Origin: Chthonomonadales bacterium
GTDB lineage: Bacteria; Armatimonadota; Chthonomonadetes; Chthonomonadales; Chthonomonadaceae
Length of the DNA: 18,486 bases
Direction: 5' to 3'
Assembly: GCA_038217285.1 (NCBI GenBank)
Contig: JBBQPO010000110.1
Span: 1 to 18,486, forward strand
Notes under the pieces: generated by a model
The model's input: only the letters and a program-made list of their open reading frames with translations
Told to the model about the DNA's origin: nothing
Database searches by the model: none
Position numbers and translations under genes: made by a program
Part shown: positions 1 through 18,486 of the stretch, piece by piece
Layout of the letters: the number at the start of each line of letters is the position of its first letter
How positions within the stretch are numbered: position 1 is the first letter of the stretch

Positions 1-12
1 GAGGGCTTTAGC
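1..12 (+). rRNA. Possible extreme 3' end of 23S rRNA (cut by window edge)
   Basis: Window starts GAGGGCTTTAGC, resembling the common 23S terminus (...CGAGGGCTTRACC), and lies ~315 nt upstream of a 5S rRNA on the same strand. Only 12 nt are visible, so support is weak. Confidence 0.35.
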
Positions 13-329
13 AAAATCCTTGCACCCTACGCGCACCTCGTCCTTCCTCCTGGGCTTCCCACAAGGATACCTTGGCAGAAGGAAAGAGTGCGGGCAGTAG
101 TAAGTAGCAAGCGTGTGAACTTGGTACGCAAGTACCATACAATGGGGATTTGTTGCTGGTAGAGACTTCAGGACTCCCAGGCAAAGCTCTGAACACTTCG
201 ATCAAACCGTCTATTCGTGAAGGATATTGGAGAGTGAGCGCCCGACCGCAAGGAGAGGCGCTCCCCCTTCAAGCCCAAAAACTACAGATTTTGAGGGGAT
301 ATAGGGCTTCTTGCTCTCCTCTCGCCGAT

Positions 330-447
330 TTCTGGTGGTCATAGTGCTGGTGTCCCACCCGTTCCCATCCCGAACACGGTCGTGAAACCCACGCATGCCG
401 ACGATACTCGCGGGGAAACCTGCCGGGAAAATAGGTCGCCGCCAGAA
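330..447 (+). rRNA. rrf: 5S ribosomal RNA
   Basis: 118 nt; terminal helix TTCTGGTGG...CCGCCAGAA; conserved CCACCCGTTCCCATCCCGAACACGG..GTGAAAC loop C region; GCCGACGATACT and GGGAAAATAGGTCGCCGCCAG 3' motifs. Confidence 0.97.
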
Positions 448-456
448 TACATAGCG

Positions 457-500
457 AACGAGCGTCTTCGAGAGCAATCTCAGACGCTCGTTTTGTTTTT
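457..500 (+). terminator. Rho-independent terminator after 5S rRNA
   Basis: AACGAGCGTCT (457-467) pairs with AGACGCTCGTT (482-492), capped by GAGA-GCAA-TCTC, followed by TTTTGTTTTT. Confidence 0.9.
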
Positions 501-521
501 ATGCCAAAGGAGTTCGCCGCC

Positions 522-1457
522 ATGAACATGCGTAACCTCGCCAAAACTGGTTTGCTGGTGATCGCCTTATCCACCACGTTTGCTATAGAGGGTTCCGTCG
601 CTCAACAACGCAACTTTGAACTGGATATCGCCCGATTGTCCCTCAGGGCATTAGATAAATGTTCCCCGAAAGGTCCTGCGTCCCCACCCTCTATCAGCTC
701 TTCCAGCGCCTCATCCCATCGGATACCCGCCGGGTATAAACTGGTCTGGTCCGACGAATTTAACAAAGAGGGCCTGCCTGATAAAACAAAGTGGAGCTAC
801 GATACCGAGGCCAATAAGACGGGTTGGTACAACCATGAACTGCAATACTACGCAGCCGGACGCTCAGAGAACTCTCGCGTTAGCGGCGGAAAACTGATCA
901 TTACGGCACGTAAAGAGGCGCTCACCTCAGCGTCCGATTACGGAGGTCAGAAATACACCTCTGCGCGGCTGATTACGCGCGACAAGGTCAGTTGGACCTA
1001 TGGATTTATCGAAGTGCGTGCCAAACTGCCGGGTGGGATAGGCTCGTGGCCTGCCATCTGGATGCTGGGGACGAGCGGCGGCTGGCCTCGGGGAGGCGAG
1101 ATCGACATCATGGAGCAGGTCGGAAAAGAACCGACCAAAATCCAAGGCACGATACATACTCAGTCGACGGCCGGCACCTCAGGCAGTGGCGGGCAGATCA
1201 ACGTGCCGGACGCCTGCACCCGGTTCCACAACTACCAGTTGACCTGGACGCCGAAACGTCTGTCTATCGGGGTGGACGGCAAAATCTATCACACCTATCT
1301 CGATACAGGCAAAGGAAGAGACAGTTGGCCCTTTGACAAACCGCAGTATCTGCTGCTGAACTTGGCCATTGGCGGAGACATGGGCGGCGCAGTGAAGGAC
1401 AGCATCTTTCCCGTTCAGATGGAGGTCGATTACGTGCGTGTCTATCAAAAACGCTGA
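522..1457 (+). CDS. Glycoside hydrolase family 16 (laminarinase/beta-1,3-glucanase-like), secreted
   Basis: Catalytic EIDIME motif; LVWSDEF, YTSARL, WPAIWML and M.VDYVRVY signatures; N-terminal signal-like segment and Ser/Pro linker. ATG 522 is preferred over 501 because AAGGAG lies at 507-512. Confidence 0.93.
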   Translation: MNMRNLAKTGLLVIALSTTFAIEGSVAQQRNFELDIARLSLRALDKCSPKGPASPPSISSSSASSHRIPAGYKLVWSDEFNKEGLPDKTKWSYDTEANKTGWYNHELQYYAAGRSENSRVSGGKLIITARKEALTSASDYGGQKYTSARLITRDKVSWTYGFIEVRAKLPGGIGSWPAIWMLGTSGGWPRGGEIDIMEQVGKEPTKIQGTIHTQSTAGTSGSGGQINVPDACTRFHNYQLTWTPKRLSIGVDGKIYHTYLDTGKGRDSWPFDKPQYLLLNLAIGGDMGGAVKDSIFPVQMEVDYVRVYQKR

Positions 1458-1519
1458 CGGCAGAGGAGATCAGCCTGAGGTAGAATATAGAGGACAGACA
1501 GGCAGAGGAGAACGAGAAG

Positions 1520-2605
1520 ATGAAACGGATACACAATTTTAGCGCGGGGCCGGCGGTGCTGCCGGTCGAGGTCCTGGAAGAGGCCAGCCGGGGGGTCCTG
1601 GAGATTAACGGGTCGGGAATGTCGATCCTGGAAGTGAGTCATCGGGGCAAAGACTACGAGGCGATCCACTTCGACGCCAAAGAGCGGATGCTCAAGGTGC
1701 TGGGTCTTTCCGCCGACGACTATACCGTGCTCTTTCTGGGCGGTGGTGCAAGTACGGAGTTCGCACTGCTGCCGATGAACTTCCTGCGGCCCGGTCAGAC
1801 CGCCGACTATGTGAACACCGGCGAGTGGGGCACGAAGGCCATCAAAGAGGCGAAGCGGTTCGGGAACGTGCATGTGGCAGGCTCGTCGGAAGACGCGAAG
1901 TTCTCCTATATTCCCACCACGCTCGATCTGACGCCCGACGCCCAGTATGTCCATATCACGACCAACAACACCATTGAAGGCACCGAGTGGCCGTCCCTTC
2001 CGGAGACAGGCAACGTGCCTCTCATCGCCGACGCCTCCTCCGATATCATGGCGCGCGCCCTCGACTATTCGCGCTTTCATCTGTTCTACGCCGGGGCCCA
2101 GAAGAACGCCGGACCTGCCGGGGTGACGATGGTGATCGCGCGCAAAGACTACCTCAACCGCGCCAACGACGACATTCCCACCGTCCTCTCCTACAAGACG
2201 CATGCCAAAGCCGACTCCCTCTACAACACGCCGCCTGCCTTCGCGATCTACGTGGTCGGGCTGGTGCTGAAGTGGATCGAGGCGCAGGGCGGCGTGACCG
2301 TGATCGAGAAGCGCAACTGTGAGAAGGCTGCGCTCGTCTACGACGCCCTCGACGCGCATCCCAACTTCTATGAGCCCGCCGTGCGCAGTAAGGTGGACCG
2401 TTCGCTGATGAACGTCACGTTCCGTATCAGGAACGCCGAACTGGACAAGGCGTTCCTCCAGGGCGCTCAGGAGCGCGAGATGGACGGCCTGAAAGGCCAC
2501 CGCAACGTCGGCGGCTTCCGTGCCTCCCTCTACAACGCCCTGCCGGTCGCCTCTTGCCTGGCCCTCGCGGAATATCTCCACGATTTCGCCCGCCGAAACG
2601 GATAG
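1520..2605 (+). CDS. serC: 3-phosphoserine/phosphohydroxythreonine aminotransferase
   Basis: HNFSAGPAVLP, SILEVSHRG, GGGAS, AGAQKNAGPAG (PLP lysine), SLYNTPP, RSLMNVTF, LKGHRNVGGFRASLYNA; 361 aa; GAGGAG RBS. Confidence 0.98.
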   Translation: MKRIHNFSAGPAVLPVEVLEEASRGVLEINGSGMSILEVSHRGKDYEAIHFDAKERMLKVLGLSADDYTVLFLGGGASTEFALLPMNFLRPGQTADYVNTGEWGTKAIKEAKRFGNVHVAGSSEDAKFSYIPTTLDLTPDAQYVHITTNNTIEGTEWPSLPETGNVPLIADASSDIMARALDYSRFHLFYAGAQKNAGPAGVTMVIARKDYLNRANDDIPTVLSYKTHAKADSLYNTPPAFAIYVVGLVLKWIEAQGGVTVIEKRNCEKAALVYDALDAHPNFYEPAVRSKVDRSLMNVTFRIRNAELDKAFLQGAQEREMDGLKGHRNVGGFRASLYNALPVASCLALAEYLHDFARRNG

Positions 2606-2665
2606 GAAGGGACGCCGCTTCCGAACCTCGATAAGGCGCAGAAGAAACGCTATCGAAGGCTTCTG

Positions 2666-2693
2666 ACAACTGACCGCGCAAGCGGTCAGTTGT
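2666..2693. repeat. Perfect 12-bp inverted repeat with GCAA loop (terminator-like or REP-like)
   Basis: ACAACTGACCGC-GCAA-GCGGTCAGTTGT between serC and the ankyrin gene; no clean U-tract. Confidence 0.75.
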
Positions 2694-2732
2694 GGTTGAT
2701 TGTGTCGTGGGTCTATTGGAAAGGTCGGCGAG

Positions 2733-4358
2733 ATGGACGGGCGAAAAAAACGACTGACAGGCTGCCTGCTTTTGCTCCTCGTAATGGTGGCTCTCCCAAC
2801 CTTCCTCATCCGGAGGCAGCTACGCCAGGATCGCCTGTCCGCGCAACTCATGGCAACCCTCAAAGAGGTACCCTCCCACTTCGAAATTGACTACGATGCT
2901 GAGGCTGAGAAAATTGGGCAGGGACGTGAGAGACTAAAGCAGGTGACCCGGAGAAAAGAAGTGCAGGTAGCGCGACTGCTTCAGGAAGGCGCCGACCCCA
3001 ATGTGCGCGACTTCGGCACGGTCAAACGCTCTTTTTGGGAGGAGGCGAAATTCCTTCTAAAGCAGATGTTCAAACATTCGCCGGCCAGCGCTTCTTTGCC
3101 GCGTTCCGCTCTGTCAATCGCCGTACAGGCCGACAACACCGTAATGGTTCACGCGCTTCTAAAGGCAGGCGCAAATGATGTCAACGCGGAGATAGGGACT
3201 ACGGATGGCCGTGATTATCAGTTTCCTCTCGTCAACTATGCCGCCAACGTCGGCAACCTGGAAATCGTGAAGGAGTTGTGTGCCAGAGGGGCCGACATTC
3301 ACAAACTCAATTCGGAGAGTGAGATCATCCTCCAATCTGCCCTGGAAAGCAGCGGCAGGTATGAAGTCCCTGCGAACAAGGCTGCCGATGTCGCATGGCT
3401 TCTTGATCACAGACGCCGAACGGAAATTTTTCATCTACTGCAGGCAAAGGGCGCGAAGTACGAGGCGAACTCAAAAACCGGACATGCCCTGCTGTTTGCC
3501 GCCGCCGGCGGCGATTTTCTCGAACTGACGCGTGAACTGCTTGTTGCAGGTATATCAGCCAATGCGAGGCCGGAATGGGTGGCTTACCCTCCCGAATTTA
3601 CGGCACTCGACTACGCAGTGACCAACGACGACATTGCTCTCGTTAAACTCCTCTTGCAGTATGGCGCCTCCATTGAAGATGCACAGTCCGAGGCTGCTAT
3701 TCTGTACGTGAAAAGTCCGGCGATGGCACGACTTCTCCTGGAACATGGCGCAGACATCCACGCGATTTCCAGGCGCGGGAAACGGGAAGGCGCAAATGCA
3801 TTGAACTTTGCCTGTATCAACGGAGATGCAAAAGTGATCTCGTTCTTGATCGAGCATGGCTTAGACGTCAATTCCACCAAAGAGTACAGCAGCCCGATAA
3901 CGGAAGCGGCGGAATACGGCGGCGTCGGGGCCGTTCGACTGCTTCTGAAACGTGGCGCAAAAGTCGGCCCAAAATCTCCGGGAGCCGATGCGCTCTACAT
4001 GGCGATTGCAGATTCCCACTTCGACAGTGCGAAGCTAATTCTGCGTTATGGCGCCGCCGTCAATTCGAAGGAAGGCAGTCCGCTTACAGAAGCGGCTAAT
4101 CAAGACAATTTCGATATGGCGCTCGAACTTCTCAAACGCGGGGCGAATGTGAATGCAGGCAGAGGCGAAGCGCTTGTCGCCGCCTGTGAAAGTTGTGACG
4201 AGGACCTCGTCGATCTGCTGCTCCAGTATGGCGCCGATCCTACGGTTCGCGCGAGCGATGGCACGACCGCCATCCAGACGGCGAGACAAAACGCCGATCC
4301 GCCGGAAGACGCCAACGGAATTATTGCGCTGCTGAAAGACTACGGCGCGAAACGGTAG
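2733..4358 (+). CDS. Ankyrin-repeat protein with N-terminal membrane anchor
   Basis: Many repeats of the type TAL..A...G...VKLLL..GADVN (e.g. TALDYAVTNDDIALVKLLLQYGASI, SPLTEAANQDNFDMALELLKRGANVN); basic N-terminus RKKR followed by a hydrophobic helix. ATG 2733 is more plausible than TTG 2700. Confidence 0.92.
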   Translation: MDGRKKRLTGCLLLLLVMVALPTFLIRRQLRQDRLSAQLMATLKEVPSHFEIDYDAEAEKIGQGRERLKQVTRRKEVQVARLLQEGADPNVRDFGTVKRSFWEEAKFLLKQMFKHSPASASLPRSALSIAVQADNTVMVHALLKAGANDVNAEIGTTDGRDYQFPLVNYAANVGNLEIVKELCARGADIHKLNSESEIILQSALESSGRYEVPANKAADVAWLLDHRRRTEIFHLLQAKGAKYEANSKTGHALLFAAAGGDFLELTRELLVAGISANARPEWVAYPPEFTALDYAVTNDDIALVKLLLQYGASIEDAQSEAAILYVKSPAMARLLLEHGADIHAISRRGKREGANALNFACINGDAKVISFLIEHGLDVNSTKEYSSPITEAAEYGGVGAVRLLLKRGAKVGPKSPGADALYMAIADSHFDSAKLILRYGAAVNSKEGSPLTEAANQDNFDMALELLKRGANVNAGRGEALVAACESCDEDLVDLLLQYGADPTVRASDGTTAIQTARQNADPPEDANGIIALLKDYGAKR

Positions 4359-4363
4359 TTTCT

Positions 4364-4822
4364 TCACTCTTCGTCCTCGGGGTCTTCACTGGACGGCTCC
4401 GGGGTTGGCGTCGCCTGTTGGCGCATCTGTTGGCGCAACAGCAGAACTTGCGAACGCATGGCGGCGTCCATCTGGCCGGACTGTGGGGCGGCGATCCAGC
4501 GCATCATGGAAGAGAGGAATAGCTCTTTCAGGTAGGCGAAGGAGAAGCCTTCTGTCAGGGCGACGATCTCCGTGATCCCCACGACCGAGAGTCGCATATC
4601 AGGCTCCAGCGCCGTGTTCCAGTGCGTGATATAGGCTTCGCGTTCGCCGGGGGCGGGCATTGCGAAGGTATATTTGCGGTCGAAGCGGCTGGGGCGGTCC
4701 AGAATGGCCGGGTCCAGCTTTTCCGGATGGTTGGTGGAGGCGATTACCACGACCCCGGTATTGTTTGCAAACCCATCCAGTTCGTTGAGGAAGAAGGAGC
4801 GGTTGCGGTCGTTGATGAGCGA
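4364..4822 (-). pseudogene. C-terminal half of an AAA+ ATPase, 5'-truncated
   Basis: Frame reads [49 protein letters not shown] (sensor 1 / arginine-finger SRH). Upstream of 4822 the frame stays open to a TAA at 5002-5000 but has no Walker A, no Walker B and no ATG/GTG/TTG. Confidence 0.85.
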
Positions 4823-4833
4823 GAGGAGGAGGC

Positions 4834-4853
4834 CGAAAAGGGGCCCCTTTTCG
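4834..4853. repeat. Perfect 20-bp palindrome
   Basis: CGAAAAGGGG|CCCCTTTTCG, 12 nt from the point where AAA+ similarity stops. Confidence 0.85.
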
Positions 4854-4982
4854 TTCTCCAGGCAGGATGTTACATCGGGCGCGTCGAAACGTCTTATGGA
4901 GCAACGACGGCAGAGAGGGGCCGCGCAGTTTAGCCTCTTGAAACCGAAACAACGCCGAAGAGAGACGTTGACAGGGCTGCGC

Positions 4983-5011
4983 TTGATTTTTGCGCGCCAT
5001 TATGATACTAT
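4983..5011 (+). promoter_or_regulatory. Putative sigma70 promoter of the downstream cluster
   Basis: TTGATT (4983-4988), 17-nt spacer, TACTAT (5006-5011), with an extended -10 TG at 5003-5004. Confidence 0.6.
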
Positions 5012-5176
5012 GGGGTAGTATATCATCCCCACCTCGAATTATTCTTGCTTCGGTTTGCAGCGGCGCGGTCACCTCTGCCGCCCATTCTGCAAACCGCCTG
5101 GAAGAAACGAAGAACGACGACGTTCCCTCCTGACGATCTGCGTTCACTCGTTTTCCCCATAAGAAGGGAAGCGTCC

Positions 5177-8100
5177 ATGCCTTGTTTCGGGAATAGCCTC
5201 TCGCCTCGCTCTGTTTGGAGCAGAGGTTTCGCATCCGTTCTGTTCGCGCTCCTGCTGCTCGGGGGAGTGGGCCGTGTCGCCCGCGCCGCCGACGTCACGA
5301 AAGAGTTTCAGGACAAGTATCGCGAGATCTACGGTGCCGTAGACGCGGCACGGCTGCAGCAGACGGTGCAAGACCTCGGTAAGTTCAAGTCGCGTGTCGC
5401 GGGCTATCCCGACAGCGACAAAGCCGCCGACTATGTCAAAGGACAGATTCAGGGGATCCTCGGTCCCGGCAGCGTACAGGAAGACGCATACCATATCACC
5501 ATTCCTTATGATCTCGGTGTGGACGATCCGGCGAAGGGCGCGTATGTGCAGGTAGTGCCAACCCCCGGCGGAGCGGCAGCGACGAGCGCGACCTTGGCTG
5601 CGGCCCCCTTGCGGATGTATCCGCTCTGGCCCAATCTGGTCCGCACCCCGACCCTCCCCGCCAACGGCCTGACCGCCCCCCTTATCTATGTCCGAGACGG
5701 CAAACTTCGCAACTTCAACGGCAAAGATGTAGACGGCGCGGTCGTCATGGTCGATTTCAACTGCGCGGCGGAGTGGATGAACGCCCCGCGCCTCGGCGCG
5801 AAAGCCGTCATCTTCGTCGCCCCGACCACCACGATGCGCGGCGAGGCTGAAGCCAAGTTCATCTCGATCCCCATCGCCATTCCCCGCTTCTATATGACCA
5901 AGGAGGACGCCGCGCCCCTGCTTGCCCAGTGCGTCAGCGGGCGCGCCCCGACGGTCAAGCTCACCTGCACTATGCCCTGGGAAACCAAAACAGGGCGCAA
6001 CTTCATGGCGAAGATCGAAGGCTCTGACCCCGAGCTGAAAAAGCAAGTCATCGTCGTGCAGTCCTACTACGACTCCACCTCGGTCGTACCTGCCCTCGCT
6101 CCCGGCGCGGATACGACCTGCGGCATGGCCGCCATGCTCGAGATGATGCGCTACTTCAAACAGCCGGAGCACCAGCCGAAGCGTACCATGTGGTTCGTCG
6201 CGACCAGTGCGCATTTCCAGGCGCTGCAGGGTATCCGGGAATATGTGCATGCGCATATGGACGAATGGACCGCGCCCAGCCTCGTCGAATCCGCGACCGC
6301 GAAAGAGAACGCCGGGCGCGTCAGCGTGTGGCTGGTCGGCGCTCTGGTCCTGTTCGCCGTGCTGCTGGTCGTTCGGCTGGCGCGTAAGCTGGCGGAGGGC
6401 GAGAAGCGGTTCAATGGCCCGACGGTCTTTGTCACGGTGTCCCTGTTCCTCATGCTGTTGCTCAACCTCGGCTTTTTCGCGCAGCCACGCGACAAGTCGG
6501 CGCATGAACCCCCCACGATCTACCTCTGGGCCGGGCTCGACCTCACCAGTCAGACACAGTCGTTCGGAATCTTCTATAAAGGCTGGTTCTTCGACTATCG
6601 CGAGGACATCCAGGGTCGCTTCAGCGACATCGCCCGCGTCTGCCGCGAGAACGCCGAGAAGGTCGGCACCACGCTTGGATTCAACTCAAAACGCTATTTC
6701 AACGACGGTGTCAACCCGGTAGACGGCAAGAACTGGCGCAACTTCATCCCCGGCAAGCCCGCCTTCGACTCCGAAGTCGTCACGGTCGCCGGCGGCAACG
6801 GCATCACCTTCGCCTCCACCGACGACAGCCGCTCCCTCGTAGACACGCCGTTCGATACCCCGGACAAGGTCAATATCGCCAACCTCGCGCAGCAGGTGAA
6901 GCTTCTCGACTGCCTGATGTGGCACATCGTGACCGATACCAATGCTCCCGGCGACGTGAACGCGCAGCGCATGCCGATCACCGATCCCTCCAAATGGTCC
7001 CGTATGGCGCTGCAGGGCGGCTTCGCGACGGTGCAGGGCCGGGTGCAGATGTTCAACCCGCGCAAATCCTTTATCGCCAACTCCGACCCCGCGCTCTCCG
7101 ACACCCTCGTCGTTGTCCGCAACCGCAATAAGTCGTTTATGGGCGTGCGCGGCAACATGGTGCAGCGCACCGAGTGGACCACCCCCGAGCGGATGCACGA
7201 GCTGACCTTCAACGCCGACGGCAGTCTGCGGAAAAACCTCGAGGGAGAGGCGCTGGCCAACTCCGGCCCGCCGATCCCGGCCTCCAACTTCTTCGCCTTC
7301 CACGGCATCGCTCCGCTCACGGCCTATGGCAACAACAAAGCCACGCTGCTCGCCGCCTACCATCTCGACTATCGCGACGAGCGCACCGACCCGAAAGATC
7401 CCACCGGCAAGACCAAAATTCCGAACCCCCTGCGCGGTGAAATCGACTACGCACCCGACCTCGGCAGCACCGGCGCGAAGTATGTGCCGCTGGACGTCAT
7501 GGTCACCACCGCCGTCAAAGAGACGCCGGTCATCGTGTTCCGGTGCGTTCCGACCGCCATCTACGACCTCGTCGATCAGCAGTCGCTGCGCGCTCTGACC
7601 GGCATCGACATCTACGATGGGGAGAGCAACGGCGAGCCGCGCATGTATGGCTACGCTATCGACCCACAGGACCCCTCGCTGGTCGGCTCCTATGTCGAGG
7701 ATGTCGCCGTCCTGTTCTCGCAGCCCGGCTCACGTCTGAAGATCGCCATGAACAGCGGCCCCGGCGCGACGCGCCTGCTGCTGATCAACTCGCAGTACGA
7801 CGCCTCCGATCCGTTCAACCTGAAGAACCTCTCCCCGGAGCCCGAGGGCAAAGGCTACCTTGTCGCGGGCAGCACAAAGGATGCGCAGAATGCCGACCTC
7901 CTGGGCGACCTGACGGACAAGGCCACTGACGATACGGGCGAGATTGCCAAATCCGGTGCGATCTACGATACCGCCCTGCACGTCGCCGAAGATATGCACC
8001 GGCTCGACGACTTCCGGATGCGCCGTCTGGCCAAGTACCGCATCCTCGATATGGACAGCGACGAAGGCGTGCCCGGCCTGCACAAACTGGCGGCAGGCGC

Positions 8101-10363
8101 GATCGCGCAGTCGAAAATAGACCTGAAAAACCGCGACTGGGAGCGTTTCGACGCCGACTCCCGCGCCGCCTGGGGCTACGAGAGCCGTGCCTACCCTGAT
8201 GTCCAGCAGACCGCGACCGATGTCGTGCAGGGCGTCCTCTTCTATCTGGCCCTGCTGCTGCCTTTCGCCTACTTCATGGAGCGGCTGCTGTTTGGCTTCT
8301 TCGACCTCAAGCGCCAGTTGGGCGCTGCCGCGCTGATCTTCCTGGTAATCTTCATGATGTTCCGCGCCGTACACCCGGCCTTCGACATCACCATGAACCC
8401 GATCATCGTGCTGCTGGCGTTCATCATGCTCGCGCTCTCCGTCATCGTCATCGGCCTCATCTCCGGCAAGTTCGAAGAGCAGTTGAAGCAGATGAACCAG
8501 AGCGCCGGCGGCATCCATCGCGCCGACATCGGGCGCGTCTCGGTCGCCCTCGCCGCGTTCAATCTCGGCATCTCCAACATGCGGCGACGCAAAGCCCGCA
8601 CCTTCCTCACCTGCGTCACGCTCGTTCTACTCACCTTCACCGTGCTGTCGTTCACCTCGGTCGTGCAGACCATCCGGTTCAATCAGGTGCCCGCCCCGAG
8701 CGACCACGGCCCGCGCTACAACGGCATCATGATCCGCACCGCCATGTGGGACCCGCTGCAGGAGCCGGCCTACCGTCTGCTGGCGGACGAGTACGGACGC
8801 GAGTACTCCGTCGCCCCCCGCGCCTGGTTCTACGGCACGCAGATGGGCGAGCAGTCGTTCCTGACCCTGCGCCGCGCCGACAAGTCCTACGATGCCAAGG
8901 CGATGGTCGGCCTCACACCGGCGGAGGCGAAGATCACGCATCTCCAGGAGGCGCTGCTGCCCGGTGGGCGCTGGTTCGAGCCAGGGGATGTCTATACGAC
9001 GATCCTGCCCGACTCCGTGGCCGCCGCCCTGCGCGTAGACGACGCCGATGTCGGCAAGGCCAAAGTGACCTATAGCGGCGTCGAGTACACCGTCATCGGG
9101 ATCCTCGACTCGCAGAAGCTCAAAGACATCGCCGACCTCGACAACGAGCCGCTGACCCCCGTCGACTTCATCGCCATGAACAAGATGTCGAAAGGCGCGA
9201 GCGGCGGCGGCGACCAGGGCTTCAAAGAGTACACCCACCTGGAGCCGGACTCGGTCTTCTTCATTCCCTACCAGACCGCGACCAACATGGGCGCGCAGTT
9301 GCGCTCCATCGGCATCGACTTCGCCCAGAAGGCCGAAGTGCTGAAACGCCTCAATCCGTTGATGCACCGTCTTGGTCTCAACCTCTATGCCGGACAGATC
9401 ACGCATCCCGAAATCGACGGCCCCAAGCGCGGCACCATCGAGCGCTACTCCTCGATCGCCGCTACCAGCGGACGCGGCCTGGAACTGGTCTTTTTCCCCA
9501 TTCTGATCGCCTCGCTCATCGTGCTCAACACGATGCTCGGCTCCGTCTACGAACGCATCAACGAGATCCACATCTTCTCCTCTATCGGTCTGGCCCCAGC
9601 GCATATTGGCATGCTCTTCATGGCGGAGGCGATGGTCTATGCGATCCTGGGCTCGGTGGCGGGCTACTTGCTCGGACAGTTCACCAGCAAACTGCTGGTG
9701 CTGACGCACTGGCTGCCGGATCTCTATCTGAACTTCTCCAGCGTCAGCGCGGTCATGACCACCCTGATCGTTGTTGCGGTCGTGCTGCTCTCGACGGTCT
9801 TCCCCGCTCGCAAAGCGTCGGAAGTCGCCACCCCCTCCGTAGACCGCACCTGGAAGATCGCCGATCCGCAGGGCGACCACTGGATCATCCCGCTGCCCTT
9901 CGCCGTCACGGGTGAGCAGGCGGCCGGTCTGAACGGCTTCCTGAGCGAATGGTTCCAGGCCTACGAGGAGTACAGCATCGGCGACTTCGTGACGCAGGGC
10001 GTGACCTCGGAGGAGTTCGAACACGCGAATGGCAACGCCTATCGCGTGAAATGTATGACCTGGCTCGCGCCCTTCGACCTGGGTGTCTCCCAGCGCGTCG
10101 CCATCGAGACGACGCCGACCGACACGCAGGACGTGTTCGAGATCCGCCTGCATATCGACCGTGAGTCCGGCGACATCTCCAACTGGAAGCGGGTCAACCG
10201 CCGCTTCCTCAACACGCTGCGCAAACAGTTCCTGATCTGGCGCACCCTCAAACAGTCCGAGCGCGAGCGCTATCTGCTCGCCGCCGAAACCGCCGCCATG
10301 CCAAAACAGGAGACCGAAGGCGCACCCGGCCTCGGAGGCGTAGAGCCCTCCCCCGCCGGATAG
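5177..10363 (+). CDS. Giant fusion: signal peptide + PA/degenerate M28 peptidase-like domain + extracytoplasmic region + type VII ABC (FtsX/MacB-like) permease
   Basis: Signal peptide ending VARA|AD; PA-like segment (APLIYV...DVDGAVVMV...LGAKAVIF); M28-like VVQSYYDS...APGAD...AAMLEMMRYF...PKRTMWFV; three-TM block at ~8230-8465; elbow helix plus TM1 (ISNMRRRKARTFLT); periplasmic core domain; FtsX motif SVYERINEIHIFSSIGL...MLFMAEA; PARKAS; soluble C-terminal tail. ATG 5177 with AAGGGAAG upstream is preferred over TTG 5045. Confidence 0.88.
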   Translation: MPCFGNSLSPRSVWSRGFASVLFALLLLGGVGRVARAADVTKEFQDKYREIYGAVDAARLQQTVQDLGKFKSRVAGYPDSDKAADYVKGQIQGILGPGSVQEDAYHITIPYDLGVDDPAKGAYVQVVPTPGGAAATSATLAAAPLRMYPLWPNLVRTPTLPANGLTAPLIYVRDGKLRNFNGKDVDGAVVMVDFNCAAEWMNAPRLGAKAVIFVAPTTTMRGEAEAKFISIPIAIPRFYMTKEDAAPLLAQCVSGRAPTVKLTCTMPWETKTGRNFMAKIEGSDPELKKQVIVVQSYYDSTSVVPALAPGADTTCGMAAMLEMMRYFKQPEHQPKRTMWFVATSAHFQALQGIREYVHAHMDEWTAPSLVESATAKENAGRVSVWLVGALVLFAVLLVVRLARKLAEGEKRFNGPTVFVTVSLFLMLLLNLGFFAQPRDKSAHEPPTIYLWAGLDLTSQTQSFGIFYKGWFFDYREDIQGRFSDIARVCRENAEKVGTTLGFNSKRYFNDGVNPVDGKNWRNFIPGKPAFDSEVVTVAGGNGITFASTDDSRSLVDTPFDTPDKVNIANLAQQVKLLDCLMWHIVTDTNAPGDVNAQRMPITDPSKWSRMALQGGFATVQGRVQMFNPRKSFIANSDPALSDTLVVVRNRNKSFMGVRGNMVQRTEWTTPERMHELTFNADGSLRKNLEGEALANSGPPIPASNFFAFHGIAPLTAYGNNKATLLAAYHLDYRDERTDPKDPTGKTKIPNPLRGEIDYAPDLGSTGAKYVPLDVMVTTAVKETPVIVFRCVPTAIYDLVDQQSLRALTGIDIYDGESNGEPRMYGYAIDPQDPSLVGSYVEDVAVLFSQPGSRLKIAMNSGPGATRLLLINSQYDASDPFNLKNLSPEPEGKGYLVAGSTKDAQNADLLGDLTDKATDDTGEIAKSGAIYDTALHVAEDMHRLDDFRMRRLAKYRILDMDSDEGVPGLHKLAAGAIAQSKIDLKNRDWERFDADSRAAWGYESRAYPDVQQTATDVVQGVLFYLALLLPFAYFMERLLFGFFDLKRQLGAAALIFLVIFMMFRAVHPAFDITMNPIIVLLAFIMLALSVIVIGLISGKFEEQLKQMNQSAGGIHRADIGRVSVALAAFNLGISNMRRRKARTFLTCVTLVLLTFTVLSFTSVVQTIRFNQVPAPSDHGPRYNGIMIRTAMWDPLQEPAYRLLADEYGREYSVAPRAWFYGTQMGEQSFLTLRRADKSYDAKAMVGLTPAEAKITHLQEALLPGGRWFEPGDVYTTILPDSVAAALRVDDADVGKAKVTYSGVEYTVIGILDSQKLKDIADLDNEPLTPVDFIAMNKMSKGASGGGDQGFKEYTHLEPDSVFFIPYQTATNMGAQLRSIGIDFAQKAEVLKRLNPLMHRLGLNLYAGQITHPEIDGPKRGTIERYSSIAATSGRGLELVFFPILIASLIVLNTMLGSVYERINEIHIFSSIGLAPAHIGMLFMAEAMVYAILGSVAGYLLGQFTSKLLVLTHWLPDLYLNFSSVSAVMTTLIVVAVVLLSTVFPARKASEVATPSVDRTWKIADPQGDHWIIPLPFAVTGEQAAGLNGFLSEWFQAYEEYSIGDFVTQGVTSEEFEHANGNAYRVKCMTWLAPFDLGVSQRVAIETTPTDTQDVFEIRLHIDRESGDISNWKRVNRRFLNTLRKQFLIWRTLKQSERERYLLAAETAAMPKQETEGAPGLGGVEPSPAG

Positions 10364-10410
10364 TCAGGGAGCGATTGAGAACGGGATTTCAGTCCCGAAA
10401 GAGGGGGTAG

Positions 10411-11574
10411 ATGGGCCGACCACGGACGCTGTTGATTCTGTTCTGTCTGGGTGTGGTGACTGCCGGTTCGGCGCGGGCCGATAAGGCAGGCGAAGCTCTG
10501 CTCGACCGGTGCATCCAGGCCGAGACGAAAGCGGCGCTGCTCCAGGCCGACTACTCCTCGGAGATCGTGCGCGGCCGGCAGACGGTCAAGGTTAAAGGGC
10601 ATTTCGTGCTCAAGAAGCCGAACTTCGCGCATATCGTCTACTCGGGCTCAGGCGGTGAGAAGGACGAGACGGTTCACTCGGATGGCCGCAAACTGCTGCA
10701 CTACATGGCGTCGGAGAAACAGTATACGCGTGAGACGCCCGATATGAGTGGCGGTAACGTGGTGCGCATGGCGAGCAGCCTGGAAGCCATGGTCTTTTTC
10801 AATCCGGATCTGCTCAACCAGTTCCGTGGGCTGGGATCGGGGCTCAAGATCGTCGGGACGGTGAAGATCGGCGGGACTGCCTGTCAGGCGCTGCAGGCGA
10901 CGGTGCGCGACGGCAATATCTACAAAGTCTATATCGGCCCCGATAACCTGCTGCATGGGATCTCGCAGATCATGGGCAAGGGCGATACGCGGCAGGTGCT
11001 GGAGAGCCGTCTGACGGGCGTGGGGATGGATGCGGGCAGCGCGGCCAAGCCCCTGGCCTGGACCCCTCCCGCCAAAGCGAAGCTCGTCGAGCAGATCACC
11101 CTGCAAGCCTCCTCCGGGGGCAGTGGGGCCAGCCCGGCGGCAGAACTGCTGGCGGTCGGCGCCGTCGCTCCCGCTTTCGATCTGGCGATGGTCACCGGCG
11201 AAAAGATGGCGCTCGCGACCCTGACGAAGCCGACGAAGGTCGTGCTGGTCAACTTCTGGGACTATGGCTGAGGCTTCTGCCGTGAGGAGTTGCCTCACCT
11301 GAATAAGATGCTGGCGGAGTTCAAAGGCAAAGGGTTCGACATCGTGACGGTGGACATCGGCGACAGCGCCGCCACCATTCAAAAGTTCTGGCAGGAAAAA
11401 GGGCTGCGCCTCCGCGCCCTGATGGACACCGACGGCAAAGTCGCGGAGAAGTACAAAGTTTCCGGCGTACCCTGCAACTATCTGATCGGAAACGACGGCA
11501 AAATCATCGCCCGCTTCGAGGGCTTCGATGAGGCGGGTATCCGGCAGGCGTTGGCGAAAGCAGGCATTCAGTGA
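10411..11574 (+). CDS. Exported LolA-like/TlpA-type redoxin fusion, predicted selenoprotein (UGA at 11269-11271 read as Sec; 387 aa)
   Basis: ORFs 10411..11271 and 11290..11574 are in the same frame. Read-through gives KVVLVNFWDYG-U-GFC-REELPHL, a thioredoxin U-x-x-C, and later the cis-Pro motif GVPCNYLI. N-terminal AxA signal peptide and LolA-like motifs (GHFVLKKPN, VHSDGRKLLHY...KQYT, WTPPAKAK). GAGGGGGT RBS. Confidence 0.88.
11269..11303 (+). promoter_or_regulatory. Bacterial SECIS-like hairpin
   Basis: After the UGA, GTGAGG (11282-11287) / loop AGTTG / CCTCAC (11293-11298) forms a perfect 6-bp stem. There are 16 nt between UGA and loop, the loop has G at position 2 followed by U, and a lower TTC/GAA pairing is possible. 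Confidence 0.7.
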
Positions 11575-11598
11575 ACAAGAGAAGGGGGACTCCGTAGC

Positions 11599-13647
11599 GT
11601 GGCGGAAGAAAATGAGATAGCCCAAATACGGCAGCAGGTCGAGACCGAATCCAGGGAAGAGGGCGCAGAGACTTCTGAGCCCCAGTTCGAAGAGGGATTC
11701 AGCAGTAAGACCGTCATCGGCGCCCTGTTCGTCGGGTTCATTATGCTGCCGGGCGCACTCTACCTGGGCCTCGTGGCGGGTCAGGGACTCGGCCCGGCGG
11801 CGGAGTGGGTCACCATCGTCCTGTTCTCCGAGATCATGCGGCGTTCGTTCCTGCCCATGAAGCGCCAGGAGATCTACATCCTCTACTATGTCGCGGCCGC
11901 TCTTACCGGACTGGCGGCGGACAAAGGGATCTCCGGAGGACCGTTCGGTGGCCTGATCTGGAACCAGTACTTCATCCAGTCTCCCCAGGCGGCGATCGTC
12001 GCGCGGGAGATACCGCACTGGGTCGTGCCACCTGCCGGCTCGGCGGCGCTTCAGCACCGTACCTTCTTCGATGCGGCCTGGGCGGTGCCAATCCTACTGC
12101 TGGTCGTTGGGGAGGTGCTGGGCCGTCTGAACTGGATGAGCGCCGGCTATTTCCTGTTCCGCGTTACGTCGGACATCGAACAGTTGCCGTTCCCCATGGC
12201 CCCCGTAGCCGCGTCCGGCGCGACCGCGCTGGCGGAAGCGGCGAGCAAAGAGGAGTCGTGGCGGTGGCGGGTCTTCTCCATCGGCAGCGTCATCGGCATG
12301 ATCTTTGGCTTCTTCTATATCGCGATCCCGGTCTTTACCGGCGTCGTGTTCGGCAAAGCCTTTACGCTGATACCCATTCCCTTCTTCGACACCACCACGA
12401 ACACGGAGACGATCCTGCCAGCCGCGTTGACCGGAATCTCCGGAGACCTCACGAAGGTGCTGACCGGATTCATCATCCCGTATCATATCGTGCTGGGTTC
12501 GCTGATCGGGTCGCTGGTCTGTCGTGTCGGCCTCGCGCCCATCCTCTACCATTTCGGCGCCTTCGGCAACTCGGAGAGCAACGGCTGGACACGGGGCATG
12601 GACGCCATCTTTACCAACCAGGCCATCAACATCAAGTTCTGGACCTCGGTCTCCATCGGCTTTCAACTGGCGATCGCCATCATCGGATTCTACAGCGTCT
12701 TCCGTTCGCTGTCCGCCTTACGGTCGCAGATGAAGAACCGGGGTCTGCAGGCCCGCATCCCCAAAGGACGCGGCGACCTGCCCCTCTGGATTCCGCTCTG
12801 CATCTGGCTCGGTGTCACAATCTTCTATATCGGCCTGACAAAGTACCTTCTGAACTACGATGGCGAACGCTTGCATCAGAACCACGCCTTCCCAATCTGG
12901 ATCCTGGTCTTCTATGGCCTTATCTGGTCTCCCATCAACTCCTATGTCTCCGCGCGTATGATCGGTATCACGGGCTCGGGGGTCTCCTTCCCATTCATGA
13001 AGGAGGTCTCGATCATGAAGTCGGGCTACCAGTACGCCGACATCTGGTATGCGCCGATTCCGCTCAACGACTACGGGGGGTTCGCGCAGAAGTTCCGCGA
13101 GGTCGAGTTGACCGGCACGAAGTTCACCAGTGTGGTCAAGGTCGAAGCGTTGATGCTGGTCCTGATCCTGCCCGCGAGCTTCGTCTTCTGGGCCTTCTTC
13201 TGGCACACCAGTCAGATACCGTCGTCGCAGCATCCCTACGCGCAGCACTTCTGGCCGATCCATGCGACCTTCCAGGCGATGTTCAACACCATCAACAAGC
13301 AGTCGGGCGGCATCGCCTGGGTCAAAGAGGCTATCGACTTCAAGCGGATCGTCGGCGGTGTGATCGTTGGGTTAGGCCTCTACGGCGTGTTCGGGCTGTT
13401 CAAGATCCCGATACTCGTCTTCTACGGCTTCATAGGGGGATCGGGCGCCTTCCCACACGATGTCATTCCGACCTTTATCGGGGCGGTGCTGGGCCGTCGC
13501 TACTTCGCCAAGCGGTTCGGACTGGAGAACTGGCGTATGTACACGCCGGTACTGCTGGCCGGGTTCTCATGCGGCACGGGCCTCGTCGCCATGGCCTCGA
13601 TCGCCCTCGCCCTGATCGCCAAATCGGTCAACTATCTGCCGTTCTAA
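11599..13647 (+). CDS. OPT-superfamily (oligopeptide/YSL-like) multi-pass transporter
   Basis: 682 aa with many hydrophobic helices; OPT-like N-terminus (KTVIGALFVG...ALYLGLVAG...), internal EQLPFPMAPVAA..ATAL motif, C-terminal LLAGFSCGTGL. GTG start with GAAGGGGG RBS. Confidence 0.75.
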   Translation: MAEENEIAQIRQQVETESREEGAETSEPQFEEGFSSKTVIGALFVGFIMLPGALYLGLVAGQGLGPAAEWVTIVLFSEIMRRSFLPMKRQEIYILYYVAAALTGLAADKGISGGPFGGLIWNQYFIQSPQAAIVAREIPHWVVPPAGSAALQHRTFFDAAWAVPILLLVVGEVLGRLNWMSAGYFLFRVTSDIEQLPFPMAPVAASGATALAEAASKEESWRWRVFSIGSVIGMIFGFFYIAIPVFTGVVFGKAFTLIPIPFFDTTTNTETILPAALTGISGDLTKVLTGFIIPYHIVLGSLIGSLVCRVGLAPILYHFGAFGNSESNGWTRGMDAIFTNQAINIKFWTSVSIGFQLAIAIIGFYSVFRSLSALRSQMKNRGLQARIPKGRGDLPLWIPLCIWLGVTIFYIGLTKYLLNYDGERLHQNHAFPIWILVFYGLIWSPINSYVSARMIGITGSGVSFPFMKEVSIMKSGYQYADIWYAPIPLNDYGGFAQKFREVELTGTKFTSVVKVEALMLVLILPASFVFWAFFWHTSQIPSSQHPYAQHFWPIHATFQAMFNTINKQSGGIAWVKEAIDFKRIVGGVIVGLGLYGVFGLFKIPILVFYGFIGGSGAFPHDVIPTFIGAVLGRRYFAKRFGLENWRMYTPVLLAGFSCGTGLVAMASIALALIAKSVNYLPF

Positions 13648-13682
13648 CCTGACCCCCATCCCCTTCCCGACACGGGAAGGGG
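13648..13682. repeat. REP-like intergenic palindromic element
   Basis: CCTGACCCCCAT followed by CCCCTTCCCG-ACA-CGGGAAGGGG (10-bp perfect stem), resembling the widespread CCTcACCCC...CCCTcTCCC..GGGAgAGGG bacterial repeat type; starts immediately after the stop codon. Confidence 0.7.
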
Positions 13683-13736
13683 CGCCCGAACCAGGAACGA
13701 CCTCGTGGTGTCTGAGTTTGGGTTTGGACACTTATC

Positions 13737-14558
13737 ATGCAAGTTGATGCTGTTCTAAATATCGTGCGCGGGGTCTGCATAGGGCTGTGTGTGCTGGCGT
13801 TCGCGGCAGGCGCGGCAGTCGGCTTTCGAACCAAGGATACCGGTCGCAGCGGCCGAAATCTGGTGGTGGCGGTCGGGTTGATCGCGCTTTTGCTCATCGG
13901 AGGAACGTATCCGCTGGCGACCGTGGTAGGCCCGATCATCGTTATGCTGGCGGGCTATCTGAGTTGCGCCCTGGGGGCGGCATTGCTCGGCGGCTACGGC
14001 GCGGGGCGCAAACGCAGCAAGGGGATTCCGAAGGGAGTCGCGCTCTATCTGGTCGTGACGGGCCTGGTGACGGCGCTTGCGCTGGCCAGGATGTTCGGGC
14101 TGCTCAATCCGCTCGTTGCGATCGACAAGCAGTTCCATACGGAAAAGTACGCTGCGAAAACGGATAAGAACTGCGCGGAGAACCTGCAGAGCCTCTACTT
14201 CGCTTTCGGGAAGTATGTCGAGTACAACGACGGCCTGCCGCCGGCGGAGAGTTGGCAGGACCAGGACGACCTCAAGGCCGCCATTCAGAAAGACGAGTGG
14301 CTGCACTGTCCGGCGGTCTCGAACCGGCACGACAATCAGTTCGGTTATGCGTACAATGTCGCGCTGTCGGGACGCAAGCTCCAGGGCAAAAAGCTGAACA
14401 AGATGCCGGACGCGGCTACAACGCCGCTGCTCTACGACTCGACGAATCTGGCGAAGAACGCGCACGACAGCCAGACCAGCCTGCCGAAGCCGGGACGACA
14501 CGGCGGCAAAAACAATATTCTATTCTGTGACGGTCATATCGAGAGTGTAGCTCCGTAG
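13737..14558 (+). CDS. Membrane protein with C-terminal DUF1559-like / H-X9-DG domain
   Basis: About four N-terminal hydrophobic helices; then KNCAENLQSLYFAFGKYVEYNDGLPP, LHCPA, YAYN and an exact H-GGKNNILFC-DGH (14499-14537). Confidence 0.82.
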   Translation: MQVDAVLNIVRGVCIGLCVLAFAAGAAVGFRTKDTGRSGRNLVVAVGLIALLLIGGTYPLATVVGPIIVMLAGYLSCALGAALLGGYGAGRKRSKGIPKGVALYLVVTGLVTALALARMFGLLNPLVAIDKQFHTEKYAAKTDKNCAENLQSLYFAFGKYVEYNDGLPPAESWQDQDDLKAAIQKDEWLHCPAVSNRHDNQFGYAYNVALSGRKLQGKKLNKMPDAATTPLLYDSTNLAKNAHDSQTSLPKPGRHGGKNNILFCDGHIESVAP

Positions 14559-14642
14559 TAACTCTCTATCGTCTCACAACGTGCGTTTGCAAAAGAGGGG
14601 GCGGGCACATTCGGCGTCTGCCTCGAAGAACGGTTTTATTTT

Positions 14643-16135: not shown

Positions 16136-16148
16136 GGGAAAATAACCT

Positions 16149-16775
16149 ATGAGCGATCAATCTATCCAGCAGCCCATTCAGGCTTCCATCAAGGTGCAGA
16201 AGCAGGTTTCGCTGCGCTTCTCAAAAGCCTGGGAGATCACGATCAAGAGCATTAAGATACGCTTGGCCCGTTCGCTTATCACGGCGGCCGGTATCGCCCT
16301 TGGTATCGCCTTCTACAGCTCGGTGCGGGCCGCCGGTCTGTTCCCGTCGGAGGGGGTCGGCGCGGAGGCCCTGGCGGCGGCGCACCGGCAGCAGTGGCTG
16401 GCGGTCATGGCCCTTATGGTCTGCTTCGTCGGTATCATGAACTCCATGCTGATGTCGGTGACGGAGCGGTTCAAAGAGATCGGCACGATGAAGTGCCTCG
16501 GAGCCCTGAACCGCGACATCATCATGCTCTTCTTCCTCGAAGCCATGCTCATGGGCCTGACGGCCTCGTTCCTGGGCTGGCTGGTCGGCTGGCTCATCGT
16601 GGTGGTCATTCACCTCTTCACCGGCGGCTTTCAGCCCGCGTTCATCGGCGGTTCGCTCGTGCAGATGTTGCTCTCAACGGGCATCGGCGTCGCGATCACG
16701 CTGCTGGCGGGGATTCCGCCCGCCATCAACGCCGCGCGTATGGCTCCCGCCGTCGCGCTGCGCTCGTCCATCTAA
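16149..16775 (+). CDS. Minimal FtsX-like (type VII ABC) permease lacking a large periplasmic domain
   Basis: KSIKIRLARSLITAAGIALGIAF (elbow + TM1), GIMNSMLMSVTERFKEIGTMKCLGA...LFFLEA, PAINAARMAPAVALR; only ~25 aa between TM1 and TM2. Confidence 0.92.
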   Translation: MSDQSIQQPIQASIKVQKQVSLRFSKAWEITIKSIKIRLARSLITAAGIALGIAFYSSVRAAGLFPSEGVGAEALAAAHRQQWLAVMALMVCFVGIMNSMLMSVTERFKEIGTMKCLGALNRDIIMLFFLEAMLMGLTASFLGWLVGWLIVVVIHLFTGGFQPAFIGGSLVQMLLSTGIGVAITLLAGIPPAINAARMAPAVALRSSI

Positions 16776-16800
16776 TATCAAAAGAAAGGGTTCCTAATTC

Positions 16801-17538
16801 ATGGGCGCCAATGAGTATGTGGTTCGCACAAAAGGCCTGATCAAAGAGTTCACGATGGGCGATGAAACCCTCCGCGCCCTGAACGGCGTGGATCTGGACA
16901 TTCGACGTGGCGAGTATATCTCGATCATGGGCCCTTCCGGCTCCGGCAAATCGACGCTGTTCAACGCCATCGGCGGCCTGGACAAGCCGACTTCCGGCTC
17001 GGTCTTCATCAACGACGTCGATATGGCGCAGCTGGATGCCTCCGAACTGGCCTATTTGCGCTGCCACACCATCGGCTATATCTTCCAGTCGTATAACCTT
17101 ATCCCCGTTATGACCGCGCTTGAGAACGTGGTGCTGCCGACGATCTTCGCCGGAATGCCCACCGACGAAGGCGTCGAGCGCGGTATGGAGATGCTCAACA
17201 AGGTCGGCCTGGGGCATCGCTTCCACCACCGTCCCACGGAGCTCTCTGGAGGCCAGCAGCAGCGCGTCGCCATCGCCCGTTCTCTGGCGAACCGACCCGC
17301 CATCGTCCTCGCCGACGAGCCGACCGGCAACCTGGATCTGAAGACCGGGACCGAGATCATCGAACTGCTGCGCGAGTTGAACCGCAATGAAGGCGTGACG
17401 ATCATCTCGGCGACCCACGACTATAAAATGGTCGATGTTTCGGACCGTGTCGTCTGGATTCGAGACGGCCGTATCGCCAAGATCGAAGAGCGCGCCGACA
17501 TCGATATCACCGTCGGCGAGATGCACGTCGAAGAGTAG
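16801..17538 (+). CDS. ABC transporter ATP-binding protein, LolD/MacB/FtsE type
   Basis: Walker A GPSGSGKST, IGYIFQSYNL Q-loop, LSGGQQQR signature, Walker B IVLADEPTGNLD, ATHD switch. Confidence 0.97.
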   Translation: MGANEYVVRTKGLIKEFTMGDETLRALNGVDLDIRRGEYISIMGPSGSGKSTLFNAIGGLDKPTSGSVFINDVDMAQLDASELAYLRCHTIGYIFQSYNLIPVMTALENVVLPTIFAGMPTDEGVERGMEMLNKVGLGHRFHHRPTELSGGQQQRVAIARSLANRPAIVLADEPTGNLDLKTGTEIIELLRELNRNEGVTIISATHDYKMVDVSDRVVWIRDGRIAKIEERADIDITVGEMHVEE

Positions 17539-17576
17539 TTTCGTTTTCAGGATTCAATAGGAGTGGAGAGACCGCA

Positions 17577-18410: not shown

Positions 18411-18427
18411 TCCGATCCCTGTGCGAC

Positions 18428-18460
18428 AGGCCGCCCGAAACAAAATCGGGCGGCCTTTTT
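18428..18460 (+). terminator. Rho-independent terminator closing the cluster
   Basis: AGGCCGCCCGA-AACAAAA-TCGGGCGGCCT, 11-bp stem followed by a T-run. Confidence 0.9.
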
Positions 18461-18486
18461 CGTGTAGATAGCCTGTCAAATGGTAC

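Follow-up and report, generated by a model that had tools for sequence, protein, structure and literature searches.

The window analysed here is an 18,486-nucleotide stretch of DNA from a Chthonomonadales bacterium of the phylum Armatimonadota (GenBank assembly GCA_038217285.1, contig JBBQPO010000110.1, positions 1 to 18,486 of the forward strand). It carries, on the plus strand at 5177..10363, a gene for a 1,728-amino-acid fusion (the big protein) in which a head with the fold of M28 aminopeptidases is followed in the same chain by a MacB/FtsX-type permease. The head retains the M28 fold and a set of fixed residues at the old active site, and appears to have lost the canonical two-zinc centre. 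We consider it slightly better than an even bet (about 0.55) that the head is a non-proteolytic, ligand-binding module, the position or openness of which is driven by a type VII ABC motor. A first-pass annotation, made from the sequence alone, had described positions 5660-6560 as a nicalin/nicastrin-like pseudo-peptidase domain coupled to an ABC motor. Our results agree with the degenerate peptidase fold, argue against a specific kinship to nicalin and nicastrin, and bear out the coupling in part.

Results

Region 5660-6560 falls wholly inside an open reading frame (ORF) of the plus strand at 5045..10363; that strand also carries the neighbouring genes at 10411..11574, 11599..13647 and 16149..17538 and the 5S rRNA gene described below. 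The first ATG of the ORF, at 5177, is likely to be the start codon, because the closest homologues have 1,722-1,727 amino acids (aa) and match the resulting length of 1,728 aa. Besides the ORF itself, the gene is defined by Pfam matches to M28, MacB_PCD and FtsX and by full-length homologues, which carry the database names "FtsX-like permease family protein" or "M28 family peptidase". Pfam Peptidase_M28 (PF04389) scores 42-44.7 bits against a cut-off of 21.3, over profile positions 1-88 of 193 only, and this first half of the M28 fold (residues 275-366; 5999..6274) is also covered by PDB alignments and hhalign. It is preceded by a protease-associated (PA)-like module at residues 166-246 (5672..5914), in which the Pfam PA match is sub-threshold (E 3e-4), the same stretch aligns to the PA part of the aminopeptidase 2EK8, and many residues are invariant. 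The second half of the fold (residues 447-575; 6515..6901) is recognised by Foldseek coverage and conservation; sequence methods did not detect it (for residues 440-600, no Pfam match at E<=10 and nothing relevant with phmmer against the PDB; for hhalign of the second half against the canonical M28 protein P0212, a probability of 0.1). An AF2 model of residues 38-1010 (pLDDT 92.5, pTM 0.91) has as its top Foldseek matches in the PDB the aminopeptidases 2EK8 (3.4e-22), 3IIB, BSAP 6HC6 and PaAP, followed by transferrin receptor 1 and GCPII, with alignments of 559-590 columns to aminopeptidases of 407-442 residues at a target TM of 0.58-0.64. An M28 fold with a PA-like module, as read at first pass, is thus supported by the M28 match above its cut-off and by Foldseek for the whole fold, with the PA match below threshold.

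Within this fold, three motifs carry the replacements. Y297-Y298-D299 (tac-tac-gac, 6065..6073) stands in place of HxD, G310-A-D312-T-T-C-G316 (6104..6124, with GADTT read from ggc-gcg-gat-acg-acc at 6104-6118) is the counterpart of GAxDNxxG, and A345-H346-F347-Q-A-L-Q-G352 (gcg-cat-ttc-cag-gcg-ctg-cag-ggt, 6209..6232) takes the place of xEExGLxG; all of these codons lie exactly where the first-pass annotation had put them, in the frame of the ORF. HMMER alignments to the Vibrio aminopeptidase (1AMP family; chain numbering counted from the printed alignment) and to 2EK8 pair Y297 with His97, D299 with Asp99, H346 with Glu151 and F347 with Glu152. In the Vibrio enzyme we take Glu151 to be the general base and Glu152 to be a zinc ligand. 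The same residue equivalences were returned at 97.4% probability by hhalign of the family alignment against P0212, which carries the H..D, GAADN, EE, D and DH motifs. Here PGADTTCG is paired with GAADNATG, placing D312 on the Asp of GAxDN, whereas the two HMMER alignments are shifted at GADTT by a one-residue gap; on the hhalign pairing the bridging Asp (the Asp117 equivalent) is retained as D312.

The five-ligand set His-Asp-Glu-Asp-His of M28 peptidases is therefore incomplete in the head, with His97 replaced by Tyr and Glu152 by Phe according to the alignments and the Asp117 equivalent kept, and the general-base Glu, the first of the Glu-Glu pair, is absent, with His346 in its position. In the second half of the fold, D455 is probably the equivalent of Asp179 and S532 that of His256, because of the shape of the motifs (one strand that ends in L-D, and a helix that opens with D-S-E and is followed by a strand), the order of secondary-structure elements in the model and the Foldseek alignments. 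The general base would then be gone, and two of the five metal ligands, the Asp117 and putative Asp179 equivalents, would survive. Judged from the sequence, the two-zinc centre of the M28 family cannot be expected to form in the head, the replacement of His256 being only probable, and peptidase activity has presumably been lost. The claim of a lost canonical zinc site consequently holds for Glu-Glu to His-Phe and His97 to Tyr by alignment, and probably for His256.

We followed these positions in a close set, consisting of the query and its 120 best full-length matches (40-88% identical, 121 rows), and in a distant set of the query and 132 cluster representatives (31-63% identity, 133 rows); the latter was drawn from 134 representatives, two of which were dropped by the span filter, and 16 further representatives, stored earlier, were left out. 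D299 is Asp in every row of both sets (121/121 and 133/133), and H346 is His in all 121 close rows and in 128/133 distant rows, never Glu. Position 297 is mostly Tyr (close: Y 100, F 19, H 2; distant: Y 103, H 14), and position 312 is Glu in 79 and Asp in 42 close rows and acidic in 113/133 distant rows (E 89, D 24). At position 347, Phe predominates in the close set (F 94, H 12, Y 10, other 5) and Glu occurs in neither set; a Glu-Glu pair was found in 0/121 close and 0/133 distant rows. The putative Asp179 equivalent, position 455, is Asp in 121/121 and 129/133 rows, and in the close set E533 (121/121), D550, R552, D556, T557, P558 and D560 are invariant. The near-fixation of D299 and H346, with position 297 mostly Tyr, answers the conservation check proposed at first pass in favour of a shared pattern. 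Because this pattern is fixed across close and distant sets, we regard the site as remodelled and under selection, as opposed to a product of chance or decay. The zinc-less, strictly conserved site would accordingly be an old, selected state of a large family: an exhaustive search gave 1,929 representatives at E<=1e-3, 1,209 at E<=1e-10 and 599 at E<=1e-30, with lengths mostly of 1,400-1,900 aa among the 150 matches listed. A search for shorter proteins that could be stand-alone heads returned 91 matches, many of which are short or bear the word 'partial' in their names, with several located on contigs just a few kb long. They look like fragments, apart from one that is a distant canonical M28 protein, and give no clear evidence of a split form.

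Sequence and fold comparisons bear on the nicastrin/nicalin question. The 2EK8 aminopeptidase is matched at 2.7e-9 by the single sequence and at 8.3e-22 by the family profile, and the Vibrio enzyme at about 2e-5 to 2.6e-4 and 3e-8 to 1e-6, respectively; YwaD/BSAP (3.1e-15) and transferrin receptor 1 (about 1e-7) are listed with the profile and not with the single sequence. Nicalin lies at 0.18-0.2 with the single sequence and becomes significant with the profile (1.8e-6 and 4.6e-6), and nicastrin is matched by neither at E<=10. The Nicastrin Pfam model (PF05450) likewise has no match to the big protein at E<=10, and the best 49 of at least 500 Foldseek matches, which are PA-M28 aminopeptidases, transferrin receptor and GCPII, include no nicastrin or nicalin chain. 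It is therefore very improbable that the head belongs to the lineage of nicastrin and nicalin, as a genuine prokaryotic member or as its ancestor, and is inactive by descent. The significant nicalin profile match speaks for such descent, as does PMC2647162, which calls the ectodomain of nicastrin aminopeptidase-like and presents it as a proposed substrate receptor; against it, the aminopeptidases score far better both by profile and by sequence (2.7e-9 versus 0.18), and the nearest folds are bacterial PA-M28 enzymes. Descent of the head from a bacterial PA-M28 aminopeptidase lineage is the best reading, and the sequence comparisons point to a metal site lost in parallel, with no shared inactive ancestor, so that the nicastrin/nicalin label would be valid as an analogy only. 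In the literature we found no paper on an M28-FtsX fusion or on a bacterial nicastrin/nicalin-like domain.

In the big protein, the PA/M28-like head is followed by a beta-sandwich region, a helical stalk, three extra transmembrane helices, the MacB/FtsX-type permease and a C-terminal cytoplasmic domain. The N terminus is a signal peptide or signal anchor (5177..5290) by hydropathy scan and sequence, with a hydrophobic core at residues 17-35 followed by A-R-A|A, and cleavage would occur after A-R-A. The beta-rich region (approximately residues 617-869; 7025..7783) probably consists of tandem beta-sandwiches in the structure model. Modelled separately it has a pLDDT of 87.3, and Foldseek against the PDB gives weak generic matches to adhesins, pilins and Fabs (E of at least 2.5e-4, TM of at most 0.24), with no Pfam match and no usable match in the Atlas of language-model features. 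Three long helices assigned by DSSP of the models (residues 932-1004; 7970..8188) run towards the membrane, and the hydropathy scan places three extra transmembrane helices at residues 1016-1094 (8222..8458).

The permease unit (8600..9820) consists of transmembrane helix (TM) 1 at residues 1145-1163, a periplasmic core domain and TM2-4 at residues 1437-1541, as delimited by Pfam, the family profile and hydropathy. MacB_PCD (PF12704) matches residues 1142-1313 at 27.1 bits, with a cut-off of 27, and FtsX (PF02687) matches residues 1439-1548 at 52 bits; the family profile matches MacB at 2.7e-12 and also YtrF, LolF and LolC. The layout that defines type VII ABC permeases, a four-helix FtsX module whose TM1 and TM2 are separated by a periplasmic core domain, is thus present in the unit. 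Residues 1550-1728 (9824..10360) form a conserved C-terminal cytoplasmic domain with many near-invariant columns, to which Pfam gives no match and which we leave unassigned to a family. The head, the beta-rich region and the MacB periplasmic domain would lie outside and the tail in the cytoplasm, in agreement with the topology of MacB; for the head this placement follows from the parity of the hydrophobic segments in the hydropathy scan and from the Lys/Arg-rich loops of the hairpin described next.

An insert interrupts the M28 fold after the AHF helix and ahead of the D455 strand; it consists of two hydrophobic helices (residues 384-402 and 417-435; 6326..6481) that enclose a Lys/Arg-rich loop. 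Their Kyte-Doolittle values are 2.65 and 2.36, and they are modelled as long helices with a pLDDT of 93-98. The hairpin is present in 47/121 rows of the close set, and the other 74 have a loop of 27-52 residues instead; distant members carry it in dissimilar, unrelated-looking versions, which suggests repeated gain or loss. From its sequence, the hairpin may be an optional membrane element pinning the head to the membrane.

To place the gene in context, we compared 25 loci encoding relatives in Chthonomonadales and other Armatimonadota genomes. The conserved downstream order begins, often, with a LolA-like/thioredoxin gene, followed by a 682-aa membrane protein and a membrane protein with resemblance to H-X9-DG proteins, and continues with a 356-aa protein, a PqqD-like protein (12 loci), a 208-aa FtsX protein (11 loci) and an ABC ATPase (7 loci, the remaining loci ending before the ATPase position). 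The ATPase (16801-17538), which is LolD/MacB-like, scores 239.7 bits with LolD, 220 with MacB and 196.5 with FtsE, all under the equivalog cut-offs. It is directly preceded by three tightly packed or overlapping ORFs at 14643-16775, encoding the 356-aa protein, for which family searches gave nothing, the PqqD-like protein of 145 aa and the 208-aa FtsX-type protein. The last of these (16149-16775) is a four-helix permease with almost no periplasmic loop and no periplasmic domain, and our guess is that it partners the big permease as a heterodimer. Coupling of the head to an ABC motor, as suggested at first pass, is therefore supported in that the head shares a chain with a MacB/FtsX-type permease and an ATPase belongs to the conserved cluster; on this indirect ground that ATPase could plausibly serve the big permease, although its gene adjoins the second FtsX gene.

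The 682-aa polytopic membrane protein (11599..13647) follows the big gene in 15/15 loci that extend far enough and is 69-95% identical across them. It has no Pfam and no PDB match and remains without a family. The Atlas features place it near "peptide transporter" clusters (score 0.98, with OPT on 33% of members) and also indicate DUF6784/6785 clusters, and the NCBI name 'peptide transporter' is attached to 3/120 of its listed relatives. The next membrane protein (13737-14558) shows at its C terminus a weak, sub-threshold resemblance (E 0.0084) to the model for the H-X9-DG motif found in prepilin-like proteins, and has no other family match.

Further leads to the ligand came from a Pfam scan of 15 unusual relatives of the big protein. 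LysM is inserted in the head of four of them (P0253, P0254, P0181 and P0207), including P0253, a full-length LysM-M28-MacB_PCD-FtsX protein (2,451 aa) with an additional, weak match to NMB0315 domain I; LysM in relatives points to peptidoglycan. One of the 15 has a Big_5 domain, and P0296 (2,120 aa) has a C-terminal fusion to DUF6785 plus DUF6784 (E 9e-120). The cluster also contains the PqqD-like fold, which by family names is a peptide-binding module in other systems. Peptide and peptidoglycan are thus leads as candidate ligands of the head.

Between the big gene and the 682-aa gene lies a secreted LolA-like domain fused to a thioredoxin fold of the ResA/TlpA type (10411..11574), with an in-frame TGA at 11269-11271. 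The TGA occupies the first Cys of the CxxC motif (…NFWDYG-TGA-GFC…), the frame stays open for approximately 100 more codons so that the LolA-like gene runs past 11271, and the read-through product is similar to ResA/TlpA thiol-disulfide oxidoreductases on both sides of the TGA (E 1.4e-18). TGA is found at the CxxC position in 4 related loci and TGT/TGC in 7, the pattern of a classic selenocysteine/cysteine pair, and the TGA is a candidate selenocysteine codon on this sequence pattern. A SECIS-like hairpin after the TGA was considered and rejected, its folding energy being no better than that of shuffled sequence (z = -0.75). In 5 loci that span this interval, no such gene was detected.

Upstream of the big gene, a 552-aa ankyrin-repeat protein is encoded at 2700-4358, as is also the case in two of the compared loci (L001 and L003). 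A 5S rRNA gene (331-447, 83.7 bits) is closely followed downstream by a gene for a GH16 glycoside hydrolase.

Discussion

We favour a mechanism in which a PA plus M28 aminopeptidase fold would form a periplasmic head on a giant inner-membrane protein. Selection would preserve its pocket for the binding of a peptide-like ligand and most likely not as that of a classical aminopeptidase, given the fixation of D299, E/D312, H346, D455, E533 and R552, and of a large part of the PA module, across a very large family. The head would be tethered to the permease through the beta-sandwich domains, the helical stalk and the three extra membrane helices, with the hairpin as a further tether in the window gene and in 46/120 of the compared homologues. 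Power may come from the LolD-like ATPase of the cluster, whose gene lies next to that of the four-helix FtsX-type protein, a possible partner of the permease. Movement of the periplasmic parts would be driven by the cytoplasmic binding and hydrolysis of ATP, in the manner of other type VII ABC systems, and through it the degenerate head would open or close on its ligand or be shifted relative to it. Ligand binding, coupling to ATP and the periplasmic location of the head are all inferred.

Several observations weigh against this mechanism. The ATPase adjoins the second, small FtsX gene and may serve the 208-aa protein alone. The equivalence of D455 to Asp179 and of S532 to His256 lacks a statistically supported alignment, the His97 position is still His in 14 distant rows, and the Glu152 position is His in 18/133 distant rows. 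A metal site or a catalytic residue would be an equally good reading of an invariant His next to two Asp. The leads to a peptide ligand are weak: the 'peptide transporter' identity of the 682-aa neighbour, which has no Pfam match, is a lead only, and this protein did not match the DUF6785/6784 module of P0296 (none by BLASTP; hhalign probability 0.3).

The strongest alternative, although an unlikely one, is that the head has remained enzymatic, as a hydrolase with one metal or none that uses His346 with Asp299, Glu/Asp312, Asp455 and Glu533 on a peptide or cell-wall substrate, perhaps gated by the ABC motor. The near-invariance of H346 (121/121 and 128/133), D299 and D455 is more than a mere scaffold needs, and a remodelled metal site using the new His, which had also been entertained at first pass, gains plausibility because that His is invariant. 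The Asp117 and Asp179 equivalents are presumably ligands of one metal site of the Vibrio aminopeptidase, and the Glu151 position adjoins the metals. However, there is a single fixed His, Phe at position 297 in 19/121 rows makes the Tyr hydroxyl dispensable, and position 312 is non-acidic in 20/133 distant rows; we know of no MH-clan enzyme with His at the general-base position, although no search for one was made. A cell-wall regulator, in which the head binds peptidoglycan stem peptides or a hydrolase as an ATP-controlled switch like FtsEX/EnvC, is the binding head with its ligand specified, and in this specific form it is also unlikely, ranking after the enzyme. LysM inserted in the head of four relatives, among them the full-length P0253, argues for it, and PMC7668044 and PMC11627006 describe FtsEX systems as regulators of periplasmic hydrolases. 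Yet the window protein has no LysM by Pfam, no hydrolase gene is recognisable in the conserved cluster, and the ATPase scores higher with the LolD and MacB models than with FtsE.

More speculatively, and with rather low odds, the family could be an unrecognised class of ATP-driven periplasmic machine, in which an M28 fold rebuilt around an invariant His/Asp pocket carries out chemistry of a new kind on peptides or cell-wall peptides, or captures them in a force-dependent way, powered through the FtsX-type unit and working with the selenocysteine/cysteine thiol-oxidoreductase-LolA fusion and the polytopic transporter-like protein. That the M28-like fold is merely a structural spacer or dimerisation platform with no functional pocket is improbable. 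A precedent is offered by the transferrin receptor, which ranks among the best matches by fold and by profile and whose PA-M28 ectodomain is inactive and serves as a binding surface, but the fixed residues of the head lie at the old active-site positions and not just in the core. Descent from the nicastrin/nicalin lineage, weighed above, is the least likely of these readings.

Compared with known systems, the head is closest in sequence and fold to the bacterial PA-M28 aminopeptidases (Aneurinibacillus AM-1 2EK8, B. subtilis BSAP/YwaD 6HC6, Shewanella 3IIB and P. aeruginosa PaAP 8ACK), with which it shares the PA plus M28 arrangement and the Asp99, Asp117 and probably Asp179 equivalents. It differs from them in Glu-Glu to His-Phe, His97 to Tyr and, probably, His256 to Ser, and also in its fusion to a permease, the inserted hairpin and a second half that has diverged past sequence recognition. 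Nicalin and nicastrin resemble it as M28-type folds without zinc ligands on the non-cytoplasmic side of a membrane complex, but their partners are presenilin or the endoplasmic reticulum (ER) translocon, whereas the head shares its chain with an ABC-type permease. Transferrin receptor 1 and GCPII, which rank high by Foldseek and profile, also carry PA, M28 and extra domains on a membrane anchor, and the transferrin receptor is a non-enzymatic member of its family; unlike the big protein, these eukaryotic proteins cross the membrane once, in type II orientation, have a helical domain for dimerisation and lack a transporter module.

On the transport side, the big protein and its cluster share with MacB, LolCDE, LolF and YtrF the FtsX four-helix unit with a periplasmic core, the LolD/MacB-like ATPase and a LolA-like neighbour; unlike them, it scores far below the cut-off of every curated equivalog model and has approximately 1,100 extra N-terminal residues. 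EnvC is a degenerate LytM protein. FtsEX-EnvC is the nearest bacterial analogy, a system in which an FtsX-type permease and its ATPase drive a degenerate metallopeptidase fold in the periplasm. Still, EnvC is a separate protein with the M23/LytM fold, whereas the degenerate domain here is M28 and fused, and the big permease is extended by three additional helices and a large C-terminal domain and is matched weakly by FtsX models.

Degenerate enzyme folds recur as regulated binding modules, as in EnvC, nicastrin and the transferrin receptor, and type VII ABC systems are the known route by which bacteria spend cytoplasmic ATP on work outside the membrane. Here both are joined in one chain, a pseudo-enzyme head and a type VII ABC-type permease, in a family that spans hundreds of 50%-identity clusters and has so far been annotated only as 'FtsX-like permease' or 'M28 family peptidase'. 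The fixed His/Asp pocket is a precise target for mutagenesis, and natural variants with and without the hairpin are ready-made soluble constructs. For annotation, the consequence is that the members of this family should not be named aminopeptidases.

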